Source: Acidobacteriota bacterium
Lineage (GTDB): Bacteria > Actinomycetota > Acidimicrobiia > Acidimicrobiales > CADCSY01
Direction: 5' to 3'
Assembly (NCBI GenBank): GCA_019510095.1
Contig: JAEKLB010000020.1
Location: 12,499-76,498, forward strand
DNA length: 64,000 bases
Shown: piece by piece, positions 2,317 to 63,993 of the stretch
Position numbering within the stretch: position 1 is the stretch's first letter
How the letters are laid out: each line of letters opens with the position of its first letter
Made by a program: the position numbers and the translations under genes
The notes under the pieces: generated by a model
The model's database searches: none
What the model was told of the DNA's origin: nothing
The model's input: the letters and a program-made list of their open reading frames with translations, nothing else

Positions 2317-2772
2317 TCAGGCCTCGCCGGCGGCGGCAAGGGCGGCCTCGAAGCCGGCCACCGCAGCCTCGGCGATCTTCACGTCGTCCTGGTACTTGCC
2401 GCCGCTGACCCCCACACCACCGACGCAGCGCCCACCGGCCATGAGCGGGTAGCCGCCAGGCACGAGGAAGGTCGTCGGGTTCTGGGTCACGGCGCGGAAG
2501 AGTACGTCGTCGTGCTTGAGCCGGCTCTCGATGAAGTCCTCGGTGCTGCGGCCCCTCGTACCCGAGTAGGTGGCCTTTCCGGTGGCGGCGTTGACGGTGC
2601 TCGCGCCCGGGCCGTCCATCCGGGCCACGGCGACGATGCCACCCGCCACGTCGACCACCGAGATCGTTGCCTCGAGCCCGAGCTCGACGGCCCGGGCGAT
2701 GCCAGCCTCGATGGCGGCCATGGCCCCCCTGTACGTCACCCGGTCCTGTCGCATCACCAGGGCGTCGTCCAT
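2317..2772 (-). CDS. GlcG/HbpS-like (DUF336) heme/cofactor-binding protein
   Basis: Starts at ATG 2770-2772 (MDDALVMRQDR...). GGYPLMAGGRCVGGVGVSGG is typical of the GlcG/DUF336 family. The rest of track ORF 2317..2979 is over-extension. Confidence 0.8.
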   Translation of the reverse strand: MDDALVMRQDRVTYRGAMAAIEAGIARAVELGLEATISVVDVAGGIVAVARMDGPGASTVNAATGKATYSGTRGRSTEDFIESRLKHDDVLFRAVTQNPTTFLVPGGYPLMAGGRCVGGVGVSGGKYQDDVKIAEAAVAGFEAALAAAGEA

Positions 2773-2843
2773 CTGCGCTCCTCGATCTCGTGGGACGGCA
2801 GGGATTGTTGGACACGGGCCAGCCCGCCGCCTACCGTCGCGGA

Positions 2844-2853
2844 TTGTATACGG
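2844..2853. promoter_or_regulatory. candidate GntR-type operator half-palindrome (tTGTATACgg) in divergent promoter
   Basis: Shares the TGTATAC core with the perfect palindrome CTGTATACAG at 4696-4705, upstream of the GntR gene. It sits between the glcG-like gene (-) and the amidohydrolase gene (+). Confidence 0.3.
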
Positions 2854-2881
2854 TTTCTCCTGAGGGGAAAGAGGGCCTGCC

Positions 2882-4033
2882 ATGCGAGTGATTGACATCG
2901 ACACCCACGTCGACCCGTCGATGGAGGTGCTCCACGAGCACGCCGACGCCGCGCTGCGAGCCCGCTGGGACGAGTTCACGCCCTACATGAACCTGACCAA
3001 GCAACAGGGCAGGAGCAACCTTTCCGTCTATCCGTTCGCCTACGGCCGCCAGTTCCGGACGTCGGGCCAGGAGATGGACCCGACCGGCGCGGGCGGCAAG
3101 GGCGCCCTCGAGGGCAAGACCCGCCAGGTCGGCCGCAAGAGCCCGGCCGCCGACGTCCGCCACGGCAACGTCGAGGGACGCCTCGCCGACATGGACGAGG
3201 AGGGCGTCGACCTCCAGGTGATCATCCCCGGGACCTGGGCGCTGGGCGCCAGCGCCCTCGACGCCGAGCTGGCGAAGGGCTTGTACGAGGCATACCACCG
3301 CTTCCAGAACGCCTACTGCGGCGCCAACCTCAACCGGCTCAAGGGCCTGGTCGTGGCCCATGCCGGCGATCCGGCGTGGTCGGCGCTGCAGATCAAGTCA
3401 CTGCAGGACGAGCGCTGGGTCAGCGGGGTGATGCTCGTGTTGCCCGAGGGCATCCCGGTCGACGACCCCGAGCTCGATCCCATCTGGGACGCCATGGCCG
3501 ATGCCGACCTCCCGCTCGTGTACCACTCGTTCTTCTACGAGCCGCCCTACTTCCCCGGCTACCGCGACGTGTGGGGCAACCTGGCCGTCGCCCGCACCGC
3601 CGCCCACCCATGGGGCGCCCAGCGAATCCTCGCCTACCTCTTGCTGAGCGGCATGCTCGACCGCTGGCCCACGCTCCGTGTCGGCTTCGCCGAGACGGGA
3701 GCCGGCTGGCTCCCCAACTGGCTGCTGCGCCTCAACTTCATGGCCGACTACCTCTCGTCGTCGGTGCCGGAGACCAAGTACACCCCGCTCGAGTACGCGG
3801 CCCGGGGCAACGTGTTCTGCGGGATCCAGCTCTACGAGGGCGCGCTCATGGCCAAGGCGATCAACGACATCTGCGGTGACGGCGTGCTCATGTACCAGTC
3901 GGACTACCCGCACGGCGAGTGCCAGTTCCCTGAGTCGGTGAACGTGGTCCTCGACTGGGCACCAACCCTCGGCGAGACGGCCATGGAGAAGCTGATGGCC
4001 GGCAATGCCGAGCGGTTCCTCCGCCTGATCTGA
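2882..4033 (+). CDS. amidohydrolase-2 family metal-dependent hydrolase/decarboxylase
   Basis: N-terminal MRVIDIDTHV (metal-ligand HxH-type start) and C-terminal YQSDYPHGE are typical of the amidohydrolase_2/ACMSD-like family. Confidence 0.85.
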   Translation: MRVIDIDTHVDPSMEVLHEHADAALRARWDEFTPYMNLTKQQGRSNLSVYPFAYGRQFRTSGQEMDPTGAGGKGALEGKTRQVGRKSPAADVRHGNVEGRLADMDEEGVDLQVIIPGTWALGASALDAELAKGLYEAYHRFQNAYCGANLNRLKGLVVAHAGDPAWSALQIKSLQDERWVSGVMLVLPEGIPVDDPELDPIWDAMADADLPLVYHSFFYEPPYFPGYRDVWGNLAVARTAAHPWGAQRILAYLLLSGMLDRWPTLRVGFAETGAGWLPNWLLRLNFMADYLSSSVPETKYTPLEYAARGNVFCGIQLYEGALMAKAINDICGDGVLMYQSDYPHGECQFPESVNVVLDWAPTLGETAMEKLMAGNAERFLRLI

Positions 4034-56683: not shown

Positions 56684-57319
56684 TCAGGCCAGCAGGGGGA
56701 GGACGTCGGCCGCGCCCGTACAGATGGGAACGTCGAGCCACTGGGTGAGCCATCCGGCGTTGCGCGGATGGAGGTCGTCGAGCGGGTCGTAACGGTTGAG
56801 GACCACTGCGACCCGGTAGCGCTCGATCGGGGGAAGGCAGGTCCGCACCGCGTGCAGCGTGCCGAGGCCGGCGTCGGCGACCAGGACCACCAGGTCGGGG
56901 GCCAGGGCCTCGGCCAGGTCGACGGTGTCGGCACCGTCGTGGGTGATCGGCGATCGAACGCCGCCGACACCCTCGACCACGCCGAGCCGTACCGAGCTGG
57001 GCCACGTGACCTCGTCGATCAGCTCCGACAACCGCAGCCGGGGGCGGCCGAGGACGTCGGCGGCCATGAAGGGCGCCATCGCCCGCTCATACGAGCGGTG
57101 CGGTGGGCACACGACGTCGGGATCCTCGCCCGATGCCGCGGCGAGCACGTCGGCGTCGGTTGGCGTACCCGGCTCGGACGACTGCGTCGGCTTGCGAGCC
57201 GCCACTGACCAGCCCACCGTGCGAGCAGCTCGCAGCAGCTCGGCGGCCACCCAGGTCTTCCCGACGCCCGTACCGGTGCCGGTGACCAGCACGACCCGGG
57301 CCGGGCGCTCACCGGCCAT
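56684..57319 (-). CDS. bioD: dethiobiotin synthase
   Basis: ATG 57317-57319. Has the P-loop VTGTGTGVGKT and VEGVGGV. 11-nt overlap with bioF. Confidence 0.85.
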   Translation of the reverse strand: MAGERPARVVLVTGTGTGVGKTWVAAELLRAARTVGWSVAARKPTQSSEPGTPTDADVLAAASGEDPDVVCPPHRSYERAMAPFMAADVLGRPRLRLSELIDEVTWPSSVRLGVVEGVGGVRSPITHDGADTVDLAEALAPDLVVLVADAGLGTLHAVRTCLPPIERYRVAVVLNRYDPLDDLHPRNAGWLTQWLDVPICTGAADVLPLLA

Positions 57320-58433
57320 GGTCACGCCAGCCTGGCACGCACTCGTCGAGCGCCTCGACCAGCGCGTCGACCTGGTCGAGGGTGTGGGCCGCCGACAGCG
57401 TGACGCGCAGGCGCGAGGTCCCCACGGGCACGGTCGGAGGGCGGATTGCCGGCACCAGCACGCCCCGCGCCCTGAGGGCGGCAGCGGCGGCAAGCGCCGC
57501 CTGCTCCCCGCCGACCACGACCGGCACGATGGGCGACGGGTGCCCGGGGCGGAGGCAGTCGATGTTCGCTCGCAAGCGGGCCCGCAGCTCGTCGCCCTCG
57601 GGCGACTGGACGATCCTCACCGCCGCCAGCGCGGCGGCGGCGTCGGCCGGGCTCGACGCCGTCGTGAAGATGAAGCTCCGGGCCCGGTTGACGAGCAGGT
57701 CGGCCAAAGGGCCGGACGTGGCGACGAACCCCCCGAGGGAGCCCAAGGCCTTCGACAGCGTGCCGACCCGGACGACCTCGGCATCGCCGGTGTCGCCGAC
57801 CGGGCCGAACACCTGATGGGCCTCATCGAGAACCAGGAGGGCGCCGTGCCGCGCGCACACCTCGGCCAGCTCGGTCACTGGTGCGACGTCGCCATCCATG
57901 GAGAAGACGGTGTCGGTGACCACGACAGCCGGTTGGTCGCCGCCTGCCAGCAACGAGGCGACGTGATCAACGTCGCCATGGCGGTACACGGCAACGTCGG
58001 CCCGCGACAGCCGGCAGCCGTCGACGATCGACGCGTGGTTGAGCTCCTCGGAGATCACGCGACCGCCCCGCGCGGCGAACGTCGTGAGCACGCCTAGGTT
58101 GGCCTGGAAGCCGGTGGAGAACAGCACGGCGCGCTCCTCGTCCTTCCACGCAGCGAGCGCCAGCTCGAGCTCGTCGTGGACCGGGCGCGACCCGACGATC
58201 AGCCGGGCCGAGGTCGAGCCGCTCCCCCATCGATCGAGGGCATCGTGGCCGGCGGCGATCACCCCGGGATGACCGGCGAGGCCGAGGTAGTCGTTCGACG
58301 CGAAGGACACGACCTTGGCGCCATCGGGCACGGTTCCTTCGGGGCCCAGCGCATCGAGGGTCGTGGGGCGGCGCCACCGGCCCTGGCCCAGGATGGCCGC
58401 GCCCTCGGCGCTGGCCCAGTCCCGCCACGTCAT
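57309..58433 (-). CDS. bioF: 8-amino-7-oxononanoate synthase
   Basis: Class II aminotransferase pattern: FASNDYLGL, the SMDGD region, and the PLP lysine context TLSKALGSLGG. Confidence 0.9.
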   Translation of the reverse strand: MTWRDWASAEGAAILGQGRWRRPTTLDALGPEGTVPDGAKVVSFASNDYLGLAGHPGVIAAGHDALDRWGSGSTSARLIVGSRPVHDELELALAAWKDEERAVLFSTGFQANLGVLTTFAARGGRVISEELNHASIVDGCRLSRADVAVYRHGDVDHVASLLAGGDQPAVVVTDTVFSMDGDVAPVTELAEVCARHGALLVLDEAHQVFGPVGDTGDAEVVRVGTLSKALGSLGGFVATSGPLADLLVNRARSFIFTTASSPADAAAALAAVRIVQSPEGDELRARLRANIDCLRPGHPSPIVPVVVGGEQAALAAAAALRARGVLVPAIRPPTVPVGTSRLRVTLSAAHTLDQVDALVEALDECVPGWRDHGR

Positions 58434-59713
58434 CGGCAGACCTCGGCGATGGACGCCGCCAGCGCGTCGACGATGCGCTCGATCTCGTCGGCGGTGGACG
58501 TGAGGATCGGCATGAGGACCACGACGTCGCCGAGGGGCCGGAGCAGCACCCCCCGCTGCACCATGGCGGCACAGACCCGCCGGCCCCAGCGCAGGCCCGG
58601 CATCGGCGGCGCCAGCTCCACGCCGGCCATGAGGCCCTTGAGGCGCACCTCCTTCACCGCCGCAAGACCGGCGATGCGAGCGTCGAGCAGGGCACCCAGC
58701 TGGGCTGAACGGTCACGCACGTTGGCGAGCACGTCCCAGCTGTCGAGCAGCTCGAGGTGACGGAGTGCCACCGCCGCGGCCAAGGCGTTCCCGCCGAATG
58801 AATGGCCGTGATACAGCGTGCGGTCCGACAGGTCGGGACCGAGGAACGCGTCGTAGACGGCCCGACTGACCGCGGTGGCCGACATGGGCAAGTAGCCGGC
58901 GGTCATCCCCTTGCCGAGCACCACCATGTCGGGCCGGACACCCGCCTGCTCAACGGCAAACAAGGTGCCGGTGCGGCCGAAGCCAGTGGCGATCTCGTCG
59001 GCGATCAGCAACACGCCGGCCTCGTGACACGCAGCGGCCAGGCGGGCCAGCGCCTCGGGCTCGTGGAGCAGCATCCCGCCGGCCGCCTGCACGAGCGGTT
59101 CGACGACCACGGCGGCCAGCTCGTTGCCTCGCTCGCGCACCACGGCGGCGGCATCGTCGTACGACTGGGCGCGGACGACTGGGAACCGCAGCGGGTCGAA
59201 GATCGACGCGCCGAAGCCCCCGTCGTCTCCCAGCGACATCGCTCCCACGCTGTCGCCGTGATAGGCGCCGGTGAGCGCGCAGAACGTCGTACGTCCCTCG
59301 ATGCCGCGGTTGGCGAACGACTGGAAAGCCACCTTGATCGCCTGCTCGACCGCCGTCGCGCCGTCGGACGCGAACAGGAAGTGCGCGTCGTCGACCGGCA
59401 CCACCCGGGCCAAGGCCTCCGCCAGCTCGACGACGACCCGGTTGCCATTGCCGAGCATGGTCGAGTGCGCCACCAGGTCGAGCTGCTCCCGAATGGCGTC
59501 ATCGAGCTCCTGGACGTGGTGCCCGAGCGTGTTGACCCAGAGCGACGAGATGGCATCGAGGTAGCGAGTGCCATCGACGTCGATCAGCTCACGGCCTTCG
59601 GCCGAGGCCACGACCACCGGCTCGTTCTCGGCGAACGCGGACATCTGGGTGAAGCCGTGCCAGACGACCGCGGCGTCGCGGGCTACCCACGCCGCCCTGT
59701 CGCCATCCAGCAC
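58430..59713 (-). CDS. bioA: adenosylmethionine-8-amino-7-oxononanoate aminotransferase
   Basis: Class III aminotransferase: GAYHGDS, LIADEIATGFGRTG and the PLP lysine in VLGKGMTAGYLP. ATGA-type overlap with bioF. Confidence 0.9.
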   Translation of the reverse strand: MLDGDRAAWVARDAAVVWHGFTQMSAFAENEPVVVASAEGRELIDVDGTRYLDAISSLWVNTLGHHVQELDDAIREQLDLVAHSTMLGNGNRVVVELAEALARVVPVDDAHFLFASDGATAVEQAIKVAFQSFANRGIEGRTTFCALTGAYHGDSVGAMSLGDDGGFGASIFDPLRFPVVRAQSYDDAAAVVRERGNELAAVVVEPLVQAAGGMLLHEPEALARLAAACHEAGVLLIADEIATGFGRTGTLFAVEQAGVRPDMVVLGKGMTAGYLPMSATAVSRAVYDAFLGPDLSDRTLYHGHSFGGNALAAAVALRHLELLDSWDVLANVRDRSAQLGALLDARIAGLAAVKEVRLKGLMAGVELAPPMPGLRWGRRVCAAMVQRGVLLRPLGDVVVLMPILTSTADEIERIVDALAASIAEVCR

Positions 59714-59758: not shown

Positions 59759-60451
59759 TCAGGCGCGGACGAGGGTCAGCCGGAACTCGAGCTCGCCGTG
59801 GTCCTCGGTGGTCACGGCCATGTTGCTGGGGTTGGGTACGCCGTAGTCGGCGAAGACGACGGGGATCGAGCCCGCCACCCGGATGCCGGCGCTGGTGCGC
59901 ACGGCCGTGACGTCGAAGGACACCGCCTTGTTCATGCCGTGCAGGGTCAGCACGCCGGTTGCCGCTGCGGTGATGTCCTTGCCGGCCGCCGGCTCACTGC
60001 CCAGGTCGATGGGCTTGGTGAGGACGAAGGTGGCGGTCGGGTGCGTCGCCGTGTCCATGATGCGACCGTGGAACTGGCCGTCGCGCCGCGACTGGTCGCT
60101 GCTGACCGTTGTCATGTCGACCGTGAAGCGGCCGGTGGTGACCGAGGTTCCGACGATCTCGAGCGTGCCGGTGACCGCCGTGGTACGCCCGACCGCTGTC
60201 GTGCTTTGACCGAACAGCACCTCCTTCACGCGGTAGCCGGCTTCGCTGCCGCGAGCGACCTTCCAGCTACCGGCGGCCGGGCCGGCATCGGGCGCGGTCC
60301 CCGAGCTCGTCGACGACGAGTCGTCGCTGGCCTCGAGGGTGAGCCGGGCCGGGGCGTCGCCCTCGATGACGTTGATGTACACCCACGTCCCCACTGACAC
60401 CACGGCGACCAACCCCAGGGGAACGGCGGCGAACAGCCAACGTCGGCGCAT
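59759..60451 (-). CDS. YceI family protein with N-terminal membrane anchor
   Basis: Contains YRVKEVLFG...VTGTLEI...FTVDMTTVSSDQSRRDGQFHGRIMD...ATFVL. Confidence 0.85.
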   Translation of the reverse strand: MRRRWLFAAVPLGLVAVVSVGTWVYINVIEGDAPARLTLEASDDSSSTSSGTAPDAGPAAGSWKVARGSEAGYRVKEVLFGQSTTAVGRTTAVTGTLEIVGTSVTTGRFTVDMTTVSSDQSRRDGQFHGRIMDTATHPTATFVLTKPIDLGSEPAAGKDITAAATGVLTLHGMNKAVSFDVTAVRTSAGIRVAGSIPVVFADYGVPNPSNMAVTTEDHGELEFRLTLVRA

Positions 60452-60493: not shown

Positions 60494-61687
60494 TCAGGTG
60501 GCGGGCGGCGGGCCGGTGTACTCGGCCCGGGGCCGGAACCTCAGGCGATGGCCGTACTCCTCGATGGCATGGGCGACCCAGCCGGCGGTGCGCGCCACCG
60601 CGAAGATCGCCTCGCCGGCGCCCAGGGGCATCCGCGCCGTCTCGCCCAGAGCGGCGAGGGCGAAGTCGATGTTCGGGTGGGGTCCCTGGCGTGACGTCAC
60701 CACGCGCAGCACGTCTTCGATCGTTCGCCACAGGGCGGCCGGCGGTCGCGACTGCTCGACAGCGGCGAGCAGGGCGGGGGCGCGAGGATCAGGACCGGTG
60801 TAGACGCTGTGCCCGAAGCCGGGGAGATCGTCGCCCCGGCGCAGCCACTCGCCGACCGCCGCCTCCGGCGACGTGGCCGCCGCCTCGCGCAGCAGCATCC
60901 GAGCCTGGTCGGAGGCCTGGCCGTGCAGTGGACCGCCGAGTGCCGCCATCCCGCTGAGCACGACCAGGTACGGATCGGCCCAGGTCGAGGCAGCAACCCG
61001 GGCGGCGAAGGTCGACGCTGCGAGCTCATGGTCGGCCACCAGGCCGAGGGCGCGGTCGAGAGCAGCCACACCCGCCGGCCGGGCCGGCATCGGCGACAGC
61101 TTCGGCCAGAGGCGCCGGGCCACTGATCCGTCCGAGGGTGGCGCGGCACCGAGGTCGGGCAGGGAGTCGACCTCGGCGGCAACCAGCGCCCGGCCCGTGG
61201 CCACCACCGCGGGCGGCCGCCGGTCGTGGCGCAGTGCATCGGTCGCTGCCACCGCCGCCGTCACCACTCGCAGCCGGTCGGCAAAGGTCGCCTCTGGCGG
61301 GAGACCCGACTGGGCACGGCGTCCGGCCCGCAGCGCCGCCGGCGACGCCCGCCACGGCGGCAGCTCGTCGACGTCCTGCCCTGACCACAGCCACTCGGCG
61401 ACCTGCTCGTACGACCAGGCATCGGTCATGCCGACGGCATCACGCCCGCGGTACCAGAGGCGACCAGCCGGATCGATCGAGGTGAGGGCGGAGTCGACCA
61501 CGATGTCGCCGGTCGCTCGCTGCCGGCGACGGCCGGCGAGCCGGTCGACCTCGCTCCTGCGGAACCGGCTGGTCCGCTGGCCCGGGGTTCGCTCGCTGTG
61601 CAGCACGCCCCGGCTCACGTACGCGTAGAGGGTGGCCGGCTTCACGCCCAGCTCCGCGGCCGCCTCGCCTGCCGTCAACCATTCCAT
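60494..61687 (-). CDS. HTH (excisionase/MerR-like) domain fused to a citrate-synthase-like domain
   Basis: The N-terminus is WLTAGEAAAELGVKPATLYAYVSRGVL. The C-terminal ~300 aa have citrate-synthase motifs LGGPLHGQAS, PGFGHSVYTGPDPRA and PNIDFALA. Confidence 0.8.
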   Translation of the reverse strand: MEWLTAGEAAAELGVKPATLYAYVSRGVLHSERTPGQRTSRFRRSEVDRLAGRRRQRATGDIVVDSALTSIDPAGRLWYRGRDAVGMTDAWSYEQVAEWLWSGQDVDELPPWRASPAALRAGRRAQSGLPPEATFADRLRVVTAAVAATDALRHDRRPPAVVATGRALVAAEVDSLPDLGAAPPSDGSVARRLWPKLSPMPARPAGVAALDRALGLVADHELAASTFAARVAASTWADPYLVVLSGMAALGGPLHGQASDQARMLLREAAATSPEAAVGEWLRRGDDLPGFGHSVYTGPDPRAPALLAAVEQSRPPAALWRTIEDVLRVVTSRQGPHPNIDFALAALGETARMPLGAGEAIFAVARTAGWVAHAIEEYGHRLRFRPRAEYTGPPPAT

Positions 61688-61708
61688 CGGCGCAGCTTAT
61701 ATTGATAC

Positions 61709-61722
61709 TTGATCAACGTTGA
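61709..61722. promoter_or_regulatory. overlapping palindromes TTGATCAA / TCAACGTTGA in the divergent citrate-synthase promoter
   Basis: AT-rich 68-bp intergenic region. TCAACGTTGA (61713-61722) is a perfect 10-bp palindrome and TTGATCAA (61709-61716) a perfect 8-bp one. A TTGACG / TACGAT pair suggests a near-leaderless plus-strand transcript. Confidence 0.3.
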
Positions 61723-61755
61723 CGATAGGACAGACCACAGGCGTACGATGGACCC

Positions 61756-62895
61756 ATGACAACGACGTTGGACGTACCGAAGGGCCTGAAGGGACTCGCC
61801 GTCGCCGACACCGAGGTTGGCGACGTCCGGGGGGATGAGGGCTTCTACCACTACCGCCAGTACTCGGCTGTGGAGCTGGCCGAGAAGCGCACCTTCGAAG
61901 ACGTCTGGTACCTGCTTCTCGAAGGCGAGCTGCCCGACGAAGAGCGGCGGCGCCAGTTCATGCGCGAGGTCGCGCCCCTCCGGACAGTCCCCCGCGCCAT
62001 CGAGCCCCTGCTCGATGAGGTGGCCCGCACCTGTCTCTCGCCCCTCTCGGGGCTGCGCACCGTTCTCTCCCATCTCGCGGCCGTCGAGGCCATGCCCGCC
62101 AGCCATGGCGCCGATCGCAGCCGGCTCCTGGCCGATGCCCGACGACTGACGAGCGTCGCGGCCACCGTCGTGGCCGCCCTGCATCGCCGGTCGCGTGGCC
62201 TCGAGCCGATCGCCCCCGACGACGCGCTCCCCTACGCCGCCAACTACCTCTTCATGGTGAACGGCCAACGGGCCGACGAGCGTCACGCCCGCGCCATCGA
62301 GCAGTACCTGATGCTGGCGGTCGACCACGGCTTCAACGCGTCGACGTTCACCGCTCGCGTCGTCACCTCGACAGGCGCCGACTTCGGCGCCGCCGTGGTA
62401 GCCGCCCTCGGTGCGCTGTCGGGGCCGTTGCACGGTGGCGCACCGAGCCTCGCGCTGGAGTCGCTCGACGCCATCGGCACACCTGATCGAGCCCCTTCCT
62501 GGGTGCGCGATGCAGTGGCACGGGGCGAGCGGATCATGGGCTTCGGTCACGCCGTCTACCGCACGAAGGATCCGAGGTCCGAGGCCTTGCGGGGCACCGT
62601 CGAAGAGCTGGGTGGCCCCCGCGCCGAGCTGGCGGTGCAGGTCGAGCGACTGGTGGAGCAGACGCTGGCCGAGCTGAAGCCCGATCGGCCCCTCCAGGCC
62701 AACATCGAGTTCTACGCCGGCGTGCTCATGGAGCAGTGCGGGCTGCCGCCCGAGCTGTTCACCCCCACCTTCGCCATCGCCCGCGTTGTCGGCTGGTGCG
62801 CGCAAGCGCTCGAGCAGGCGGCCGACGTGGGCATCATCCGCCCCAGCGCCCGTTACATCGGCCCGCCGCCACCGCAGCCGGTCCCGGCGGCGTAG
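61756..62895 (+). CDS. citrate synthase (small, type I / 2-methylcitrate-synthase-like)
   Basis: Contains YRQYSAVELA, GALSGPLHGGAP, MGFGHAVYRTKDPR and ANIEFYAG. Confidence 0.9.
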   Translation: MTTTLDVPKGLKGLAVADTEVGDVRGDEGFYHYRQYSAVELAEKRTFEDVWYLLLEGELPDEERRRQFMREVAPLRTVPRAIEPLLDEVARTCLSPLSGLRTVLSHLAAVEAMPASHGADRSRLLADARRLTSVAATVVAALHRRSRGLEPIAPDDALPYAANYLFMVNGQRADERHARAIEQYLMLAVDHGFNASTFTARVVTSTGADFGAAVVAALGALSGPLHGGAPSLALESLDAIGTPDRAPSWVRDAVARGERIMGFGHAVYRTKDPRSEALRGTVEELGGPRAELAVQVERLVEQTLAELKPDRPLQANIEFYAGVLMEQCGLPPELFTPTFAIARVVGWCAQALEQAADVGIIRPSARYIGPPPPQPVPAA

Positions 62896-62904
62896 CCGCT
62901 GCCG

Positions 62905-63291
62905 TCAATCGTTGGTCAAGCCGTCGGTGCGGACGGTGACGTGGGCGGCGGTGTAGAGCATGCCCCCGACGCGGATCGGCTCCAGCGTGACGTGGATGGG
63001 GATCAGCCCGCCGTCGGAGACCCGCTCGGCCTCGGGGTGAAGACCAGGGTCCATCTCCCGGAGCGCAGGCTCGGCGATGTAGCCGCGGCGGTAGGCCTGG
63101 TGGCCAAAGCGACGATCGGCCGGCACCAGCAGCTCGACGGCCTCACCGAGGATGTACTCGTCCTCCGGCAGGTCGAGTAGCTCCCGGAGGGGCTCGGTGA
63201 CAGCGACGATGTTGCCGGCGTGGTCGACGACCACGATGGCCTCGTCGGGCTTGAGCGCGGCTGTGACCTCGGTGGGCAGCTCGGCGGCCAT
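62905..63291 (-). CDS. stand-alone PAS-like sensor domain protein
   Basis: 128 aa. EAIVVVDHAGNIVAVTEPLRELLDL...GEAVELLVP...DGGLIPIHVTLEPI follows the PAS fold pattern. Confidence 0.6.
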   Translation of the reverse strand: MAAELPTEVTAALKPDEAIVVVDHAGNIVAVTEPLRELLDLPEDEYILGEAVELLVPADRRFGHQAYRRGYIAEPALREMDPGLHPEAERVSDGGLIPIHVTLEPIRVGGMLYTAAHVTVRTDGLTND

Positions 63292-63399
63292 CAGCTCACC
63301 GCGACGTTGCCGGCGGAATCGAAGCGCTCCATGACCCGAGACTGTAGGGATCAGATAGCCCCTGGACCGGGCTGGCCGGCGCCCGTACCGTTGGGACTC

Positions 63400-63993
63400 A
63401 TGTCTGGGGTCGCCTCACCCACTGCCGCGCCCGCTGCCAGCCCGGGCCGCCCCCGCCGTTTCACGCGCGGCCAGGTGGTGGCCGCGGCGATCGCCGTGCT
63501 CCAGGAGCGGGGCCCCGAGGGCCTCACCATGAAGGCGCTCAGCGCGAGGCTCGGCACCGGGGTGGGGACGATCTACTCCTACGCCGCCAGCAAGGACGAG
63601 CTCATGTTGCTCGTGGCGACCGAGGTGCTCGCCACGGCGACGATCCCGGAGCCGACCGACGACTGGGAGGGCTGGCTCCGGGCCTTGCTGTGGAACGTCC
63701 GCGACGCCTTCCGGCCCTATCCGTGGATGGACCACGGCATCCTGGGTCGCCCATCGTGGACCGAGGCCGCCACGCCCATGCAGGTGGCGGTGCTGAAGAC
63801 GCTCGAGGATGCCGGCTTCTCCCCCCGCAACCGGAGCCGAGCGTCCCTTGCCCTCTACTACCTCTCCACGGGGTTCCTGCTCAGCGAGCCCACCGCCGAC
63901 CGGGCCGAGCACCGCAGTCGCAGCGTCACCAGCGCCATGGACATCCTGATGGCGGGCCTGCGGGCGGAGCTGGCAGCGCAGCGCCCCGAGTGA
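63400..63993 (+). CDS. TetR family transcriptional regulator
   Basis: ATG 63400 within track ORF 63220..63993. The HTH segment is RGQVVAAAIAVLQERGPEGLTMKALSARLGTGVGTIYSYA. Confidence 0.85.
   Translation: MSGVASPTAAPAASPGRPRRFTRGQVVAAAIAVLQERGPEGLTMKALSARLGTGVGTIYSYAASKDELMLLVATEVLATATIPEPTDDWEGWLRALLWNVRDAFRPYPWMDHGILGRPSWTEAATPMQVAVLKTLEDAGFSPRNRSRASLALYYLSTGFLLSEPTADRAEHRSRSVTSAMDILMAGLRAELAAQRPE

Follow-up and report, generated by a model that had tools for sequence, protein, structure and literature searches.

Within a 64,000-nucleotide stretch of contig JAEKLB010000020.1 (positions 12,499–76,498; assembly GCA_019510095.1, an Acidobacteriota bacterium placed by GTDB in the order Acidimicrobiales of the Actinomycetota; hereafter, the window), a minus-strand gene at 60494–61687 encodes a 397-amino-acid protein, P0001, in which a winged helix–turn–helix (HTH) DNA-binding domain is joined to a complete citrate-synthase fold. 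We propose that P0001 is probably a one-component transcription regulator with a citrate synthase (CS) as its scaffold, and that it would control its own gene and that of an adjacent accessory CS, P0002, through a conserved site in the promoter region that the two genes share. P0002 (379 amino acids; 61756–62895, plus strand) is a full Citrate_synt protein (Pfam, E = 2e-109) and is transcribed divergently across a spacer of 68 bp (61688–61755). An initial annotation of this DNA, made from the letters alone, had already described a fusion with three quoted synthase motifs facing a 379-amino-acid synthase; the open reading frames (ORFs) and the spacer are as it had them, Pfam confirms both the HTH and the full CS domain, and the motifs are present. 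Our basis is the comparison of sequences and structures, in which architecture, fold, linkage and the operator-like site are read directly and from which we infer DNA binding, dimerization, the ligand, the sign of regulation and residual catalysis.

The N-terminal domain (residues 3–59; 61511–61681, minus strand) is of the BldC/SoxR/excisionase type within the MerR superfamily. Pfam assigns residues 3–54 to HTH_17 (E = 2e-9; 37.9 bits, cut-off 27), and there are further matches to MerR_1 (28.9 against 21.6) and to the excisionase-type NCBIfam domain TIGR01764 (30 against 28.8); the Pfam MerR model stays under its cut-off (27.3 against 28.2) and NCBIfam HTH_BldC (NF033787), with 27.9 bits, far under its family cut-off of 77. 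In the AlphaFold2 (AF2) model of the whole chain, built on the homologue alignment (predicted local distance difference test (pLDDT) 95.3, predicted template modelling score 0.88), this region forms a beta–alpha–alpha–wing–alpha domain (that is, strands at residues 3–5, 31–33 and 40–43 and helices at 6–13, 17–26 and 44–60) that leads directly into the CS fold. The long C-terminal coiled-coil dimerization helix of canonical MerR proteins is absent, and helix 44–59 passes into the CS fold instead. Modelled alone (pLDDT 85), the domain is matched by Foldseek to SoxR, to DNA complexes of BldC, NmlR and RacA, to GlnR and to phage Xis (probability 1.00, template modelling (TM) score 0.64–0.80; SoxR 0.75), with the BldC–DNA complexes superposing at a root mean square deviation of 1.5 Å and 35% identity; no solved structure spanning HTH and CS together was found. 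The initial annotation had itself raised the concern that the HTH might be a mispredicted N terminus (with the real start codon further downstream and the HTH left untranslated). Such an artefact has in its favour solely the general risk of long ORFs in DNA of 70% GC, and its probability is negligible given that the domain is conserved at the amino-acid level in many phyla, with the nine-residue block T19–G27 (TLYAYVSRG) invariant or nearly so among 98 aligned homologues that are 35–73% identical to P0001, and that the fold is predicted with confidence (pLDDT of about 92 over residues 1–50).

Upstream of the fusion genes, an alignment of the spacers reveals a motif common to all phyla, which reads R-TCAA-YN-TTGA-T on the fusion-gene strand and is followed, after 5–9 nt, by a further TCAA, often as ATCAATAT. 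Of 81 loci, 71 have the exact core, TCAANNTTGA (TCAAnnTTGA), no more than 250 nt upstream of the fusion gene, and eight of the ten others carry a copy with one mismatch. Counted across all loci, 74 sites fall in the 21.6 kb upstream of fusion genes and 5 in the remaining 669 kb, an enrichment of about 460-fold. Measured from the centre of the palindrome, the median distance is 33.5 nt to the start of the fusion gene and 72 nt to that of the partner. The third half-site follows the palindrome by no more than 16 nt (mostly 5–9 nt) towards the fusion gene in 62 of 71 loci; its mirror image on the other side is present in 26 of 71. Given that the motif is also present beside partners of a different fold (HMGL type) and in four of the five loci that have no synthase partner, autoregulation would be the constant feature of the system.

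In the window, the core palindrome is G-TCAACGTTGA-T on the fusion-gene strand (61712–61723; core 61713–61722), and the third half-site is ATCAAT on the same strand (61700–61707, with TTGA at 61702–61705 on the plus strand). Both palindromes to which attention had been drawn before were located, and they differ in standing: TCAACGTTGA (61713–61722) is the conserved core, whereas TTGATCAA (61709–61716) is a by-product of overlapping half-sites. The sequence TCAANNTTGA occurs three times in the 2.95-Mb, 70%-GC genome (about four are expected from composition), and only the copy at 61713–61722 lies in a spacer with the flanks and third half-site, so that the shared promoter region holds the only full operator-like site of the genome. 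The 12-mer is likewise found once in a 6.6-Mb Solirubrobacter-like genome, inside the spacer of that pair, and its hits in four further genomes lie within genes or belong to other systems. As no second convincing target was seen among the three core hits in the window's own genome or the 12-mer hits in the five other genomes, the regulon looks local. One look-alike was considered as a second target and rejected: a GTTGAC/GTCAAC repeat cluster resembling the core (L110:1470–1545; G004:C1, about 483300) lies between genes for a LacI-family regulator and a GH4 glycosidase, and is probably the site of the LacI-family regulator.

Promoter-like elements can be read on either side of this site. For the fusion gene, a −10-like TATAAG (61701 to 61696, minus strand) stands 8 nt before the ATG at 61687 and abuts the third half-site. 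For the partner, TTGACG (61719–61724, plus strand) overlaps the palindrome and is separated by 19 nt from TACGAT (61744–61749), which ends 6 nt before the ATG at 61756, as had been noted previously; a consensus scan of the 68-bp spacer allowing 16–18-nt spacings reported no promoter because the spacing of this pair is 19 nt. Neither gene has a Shine–Dalgarno sequence, which makes leaderless transcripts plausible for both genes in the window; the layout is not a conserved one, the close relatives L005, L008 and L016 having an AAGGAG/GAGGAG leader on the partner gene. The geometry is not that of a canonical MerR operator, as the palindrome overlaps and lies upstream of the partner's −35 element and is not inside the 19-nt spacer. 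No dyad was found within that 19-nt sequence, and activation by MerR-style twisting of the spacer is therefore rejected.

The fusion is widespread and conserved as a unit. More than 5,700 relatives of P0001 are present in the protein database; the best 120 of these are of similar length (one has 582 amino acids), align over 96–100% of the query, carry a precomputed HTH hit in 107 cases and, when named by their source at all, are called citrate synthase or citrate/2-methylcitrate synthase. In a scan of one genome per species, full-length matches were found in at least 595 species of six or more phyla, which removes the restriction to Actinomycetota that the initial annotation had implied. Carriers include, within the Actinomycetota, Acidimicrobiia, Streptomyces, Nonomuraea, Actinomadura, Nocardia, Actinomycetospora, Solirubrobacter and Rubrobacteraceae and, outside that phylum, Chloroflexota, Acidobacteriota, Binatia, Gemmatimonadota, Dormiibacterota and Alphaproteobacteria (for example, Roseibium/Labrenzia and Rhizomicrobium). 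When 200 genomes were sampled evenly from the window's phylum, 25 had a match, 21 of them single full-length matches starting at residues 2–6 and the rest split or partial. Phylogenetic reconstruction with FastTree places the fusions in one clade and the partners nearly in one clade; the outgroup rows L085 and L088 (main CS) are probably in wrong frames and have long branches, and we rely on the fusion and partner groupings only. With DNA-binding and enzyme-fold domains conserved as a unit in one chain and a single clade, P0001 would be classed, from its sequence, among the enzyme-fold one-component regulators or trigger enzymes. P0001 itself is nearest (53–54% identity) to proteins of another family of the phylum (f14) and 38–40% identical to those of its own order, most genomes of which have no fusion gene. 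There are hints in these sequences of lateral transfer of the two-gene module.

Linkage to a synthase gene is conserved on the same scale. In 61 of 80 fetched fusion loci, an upstream gene on the other strand encodes a P0002-like CS, which bears out, across phyla, the divergent pairing that the initial annotation had suggested surveying; such CitA-type partners occur in Actinomycetota, Chloroflexota, Acidobacteriota, Binatia, Gemmatimonadota and Alphaproteobacteria. In 11–12 further loci (L009, L010, L011, L013, L017, L019, L025, L053, L055, L056 and L066; neighbour at about 2650–3960, minus strand), the divergent neighbour is a homocitrate-synthase-like enzyme of the HMGL fold, in the same layout and with the same DNA site. 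These loci come from Spirillospora, Nonomuraea, Asanoa, Streptosporangiales, Binatia and Anaerolineaceae. The best match of the HMGL-fold partner is NifV, far below its cut-off, and the enzyme may be a Re-type citrate synthase. A partner of another fold that belongs to the same reaction class (that is, acetyl-CoA plus a 2-oxo-dicarboxylate) fits a relation of regulator to target. Five loci lack any synthase partner, and clustering of all ORFs in the 81 loci returned nothing recurrent apart from the synthase partner.

P0002 is a CitA-type accessory enzyme, not the housekeeping CS, and the earlier description of it as a canonical or standard citrate synthase does not stand. In 60 of 62 partners, Glu replaces the equivalent of the catalytic Asp375 (NIEF or NVEF; NIEF in P0002, with Glu318), and the best solved relative of P0002, the B. 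subtilis citrate synthase 2c6x, also has NVEF. The main CS of the genome is encoded by a third CS gene, on contig C83 (446 bits). Each of five other genomes likewise has a main CS of about 470 bits together with a fusion; four also have a linked partner CS, and G001, the fifth, has a linked partner of the HMGL type and encodes a partner-type CS elsewhere in the genome. The Glu-bearing partners define a CitA-type subfamily, the chemistry of which is possibly unlike that of the housekeeping CS. About ten partner CS have an N-terminal extension of 118–166 codons, which explains apparent gaps of 450–600 bp in their loci; among those checked, L026, L033, L035 (3473–3937, minus strand), L043 and L067 encode CBS pairs and a sixth, L054, has no Pfam hit. 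The CBS pairs suggest control of the enzyme by an adenosyl ligand atop transcriptional control. In two loci, an isocitrate/isopropylmalate dehydrogenase gene precedes the CS gene. In one Acidimicrobiales metagenome-assembled genome (L024:3298–3342), the partner CS gene has at its 5′ end three perfect tandem copies of the 15-nt unit GCCAGAAGGAGGGTA, each with a Shine–Dalgarno-like AGGAGG.

The body of P0001, its presumed sensor or effector (residues 62–387; 60527–61504, minus strand), spans model positions 6–357 of 357 of Citrate_synt (E = 1.6e-58) and falls under every NCBIfam citrate-synthase equivalog cut-off (best 149.5 bits against 332). The best Foldseek matches of the model are dimeric citrate or methylcitrate synthases (1iom, 3hwk, M. 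tuberculosis CitA 8gm9 and B. subtilis 2c6x; TM score 0.70–0.74). The motifs GPLHGQAS, GFGHSVY...DPR and NIDF align with the catalytic motifs of the solved citrate synthases 2p2w and 6abx, and on the same alignment H220, H255, H293, R302, D341, R366 and R385 occupy the active site. Scoring of the catalytic His/His/Asp residues against characterized enzymes, as the initial annotation had suggested, found all three (H255, H293 and D341), which are the equivalents of His274, His320 and Asp375 (pig numbering), with R302, R366 and R385 corresponding to the oxaloacetate-binding Arg329, Arg401 and Arg421′. Among 81 fusion members, H220 and R302 are kept in all 81, R385 in 80, H255, D341 and R366 in 79 each and H293 in 74. 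Seven or eight members have lost the His274 and/or His320 equivalents (both in L024 and L038; one in L052, L074, L015, L021 and L023). All of these keep TLYAYVSRG, all except L021 keep the exact operator core, and L024, L038, L052 and L074 still have a CS partner. Next to the active site, fusions show relaxed conservation at positions where partners are at least 97% conserved; the position after GPLHG (G257), for example, is Gly in 56% of fusions against 97% of partners, and Gln in P0001.

Two pairs in the literature probably or plausibly belong to this system. In Caulobacter crescentus, the products of CCNA_03757 and CCNA_03758, named CitB and CitC, are accessory CS paralogues alongside the housekeeping CS (PMC7083601); an E. 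coli gltA mutant was complemented by CitB but not by the adjacent CitC (Berge et al. 2020, eLife, PMC7083601). That study treats CitC purely as a putative CS, with HTH or regulation unmentioned. Translated, the primer used to clone citC gives M-T-D-W-M-D, in agreement with the (D/E)-W-(L/M)-(T/D) start of the family, and that for citB gives MMSDGLEGV, as in a plain CS; judged from the six codons of the citC primer, CitC is probably a member of the fusion family, and the two proteins are probably the only member pair on which experiments have ever been done. The double-deletion construct suggests that the genes may be in tandem there, and not divergent as in the window. In S. coelicolor, SCO5831 (citA3, ‘citrate synthase-like’) and SCO5832 (citA4) form a divergent pair, both being treated as putative synthases (PMC12323332), and SCO5831 protein has been detected in proteomes. 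The published MtrA site of their spacer, TTGACTTAACTGTCCA, nearly matches TTGACTTGACTGTCCA in the spacers of the Streptomyces-group loci L027, L028 and L042, from which we take SCO5831/SCO5832 to be the same system, with SCO5831, on the basis of site positions, as the presumed fusion. This pair and its shared spacer resemble those of the window, whereas the literature describes control by MtrA, with neither HTH nor autoregulation. Searches for a fusion of an HTH, MerR or excisionase domain with citrate synthase returned no paper that treats the family as a regulator, searches on citA/citR gave nothing useful for the fusion, and those on SCO5831/SCO5832 and CCNA_03757/03758 gave only papers that treat the genes as citrate synthases.

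Several of these observations weigh against a regulatory role. All checked catalytic and substrate-binding residues are intact in P0001 and in about 90% of the family, so that a working enzyme is possible; MtrA is reported to bind the SCO5831/SCO5832 spacer in S. coelicolor (PMC12323332); the membership of Caulobacter CitC in the family rests on six codons of a primer; and the two halves of the 12-bp palindrome sit near each other and the third half-site stands at a variable distance, with an ambiguous stoichiometry on DNA. P0001 could be foremost a working third citrate synthase, a trigger enzyme resembling PutA or BirA, with an HTH that only autoregulates by catalytic load and a neighbouring CS that is a co-located paralogue. 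The seven active-site residues, present in P0001 and each in 74–81 of 81 members, are what this would predict, as is a catalytic base that in the fusion is Asp, as in canonical CS, and an operator that always tracks the fusion gene's own promoter. Such a role is harder to reconcile with the members that lack catalytic histidines and yet retain the HTH throughout, the exact core in all but one and a CS partner in four, with the relaxation near the active site relative to the partners (G257, 56% against 97%), with the failure of the probable Caulobacter member CitC to complement E. coli gltA, or with the linkage of a partner gene in 73 of 80 loci, those with a partner of a different fold included; we consider it unlikely. 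Given the histidine losses in members that keep HTH and core, the relaxed positions near the active site and the non-complementation by CitC, the data point to regulation or sensing, and not catalysis, as the conserved job of the fusion family.

The DNA site and the pairing of the proteins admit other readings as well. The AT-rich motif overlaps −35- and −10-like hexamers and MtrA is reported on the homologous Streptomyces spacer, as might be expected if the motif were a promoter element or the site of another factor and the HTH had a different role (for example, nucleoid tethering or protein contact). We regard this as quite improbable, since the motif is identical in six or more phyla with differing global regulators and sigma factors, is found almost only beside the fusion gene (74 sites, compared with 5 in a 30-fold greater length of flanking DNA) and is complete in only one of the three core matches in the window's genome; moreover, TTGACTTAACTGTCCA, the site reported for MtrA, differs in sequence and lies nearer the partner gene, and the nearest structural relatives of the HTH are all DNA-bound regulators. 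Fusion and partner might alternatively form a mixed oligomer in which the HTH-bearing subunit regulates or anchors the enzyme and is no transcription factor towards the partner. Both are of the CS fold, in which active sites are built across the dimer interface, and the genes are co-inherited, with nearest neighbours locally congruent in the tree. However, the HMGL-fold partner of 11–12 loci cannot pair through a CS dimer interface (an obligate CS/CS heterodimer was down-weighted on this account), of the five partnerless loci, four retain the exact core and L021 has a copy with one mismatch, and the layout is divergent, as is typical of regulator–target pairs, and not operonic, all of which makes a mixed oligomer very improbable. 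The idea in the initial annotation of an enzyme-derived regulator of the neighbouring synthase has thus come through the two tests that sequence allows (a genuine HTH and a conserved linkage) and gains from an operator-like site that travels with the fusion gene, whereas its canonical partner has to be given up.

For a regulator of this kind, we propose that the CS-fold body dimerizes like all citrate synthases and would thereby present two N-terminal BldC/MerR-type winged-helix domains, which would bind R-TCAA-YN-TTGA-T plus the third TCAA half-site 5–9 nt beyond. In the window, the bound site would cover the −35/−10 region of the fusion gene's promoter and the TTGACG −35 element of the partner, and its occupancy would set the transcription of both genes. 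As a protein seated on the palindrome and the third half-site would cover both promoters, we favour repression of both genes, which is also the simplest form of the model. Oxaloacetate or citrate, possibly with acetyl-CoA, may drive the open-to-closed movement of the CS fold and so alter HTH geometry and DNA affinity, and the regulated product would be the accessory CitA-type citrate synthase and not the housekeeping enzyme. In a stronger version that we hold to be rather unlikely, P0001 would be a flux sensor (that is, a catalytically competent CS whose open/closed cycle, driven jointly by oxaloacetate and acetyl-CoA, gates the HTH on the operator). If that were true, the flux entering the tricarboxylic acid (TCA) cycle would be read by its central enzyme, which would switch on a back-up synthase, mostly of the CS fold and elsewhere of the HMGL fold (possibly Re-type).

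The neighbourhood of the pair in the window includes a YceI-like gene (59759–60451, minus strand) that lies 42 nt downstream of the fusion gene; co-transcription with the fusion gene is possible, and the pairing is not conserved in other loci. Beyond it are a class-III aminotransferase gene (BioA-like), a class-I/II one (BioF-like) and a BioD-like gene (58430–59713, 57309–58433 and 56684–57493, all on the minus strand). On the other side, a 128-amino-acid PAS-domain ORF (62905–63291, minus strand) is convergent with the partner CS gene and ends 9 nt past its stop. The longest form of this ORF overlaps the 5′ end of a divergent TetR-family ORF (63220–63993, plus strand) by 72 nt, and at least one of the two starts is therefore probably called too long.

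What is known of the transcriptional control of citrate synthase, the enzyme at the entry to the TCA cycle, mostly concerns LysR-type (CcpC, CitR) or global regulators. In B. subtilis, in work attributed to Jin and Sonenshein in 1994, citA reportedly encodes a minor CS that is controlled by the divergent LysR-type gene citR. That arrangement is similar to ours in the kind of enzyme (2c6x, with Glu at the catalytic base) and in having a dedicated divergent regulator, but CitR is LysR-type and unrelated to the CS fold, whereas the regulator proposed here is a CS paralogue with a BldC/MerR-type HTH. PutA, BirA and NadR are trigger enzymes with a fused DNA-binding domain, PutA and BirA being proven enzymes. 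They share with P0001 an N-terminal DNA-binding domain on an enzyme body and, with the model proposed for it, an operator in their own or a divergent promoter and a binding to DNA that the substrate state would gate; they differ in their folds and DNA-binding domains, and catalysis in the fusion family is putative and, in some members, dispensable. In MocR, GabR and PdxR, the aminotransferase fold of fold-type I is reused as the effector of a winged-helix regulator that is often divergent from its target. The use of a whole enzyme fold as effector domain would be common to both, whereas these proteins have a GntR-type HTH and a pyridoxal-phosphate-binding fold; a CS-fold equivalent of MocR-type regulators has not been described in the literature that we searched. 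Streptomyces BldC (PDB 6ama and 6amk) is the closest small structural relative of the P0001 HTH, yet it is a stand-alone protein of about 68 amino acids that multimerizes head-to-tail on direct repeats, whereas the HTH of P0001 is fused to 335 further residues of a dimeric enzyme fold and its candidate site is a palindrome plus one direct half-site.

If the regulator model is correct, hundreds of species (including Streptomyces, Nonomuraea, Caulobacter-like bacteria, Roseibium and uncultured soil and marine groups) would possess a dedicated regulator that uses a copy of the enzyme itself as its sensor, and a systematic misannotation as ‘citrate synthase’ or ‘citrate/2-methylcitrate synthase’ would be corrected. 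The model would also explain the retention of a CitA-type second synthase in many bacteria, and would offer synthetic biology a compact sensor of oxaloacetate or citrate. Finally, the family would represent a clean example of the passage from enzyme to regulator, one that includes lineages caught after the loss of their catalytic histidines.

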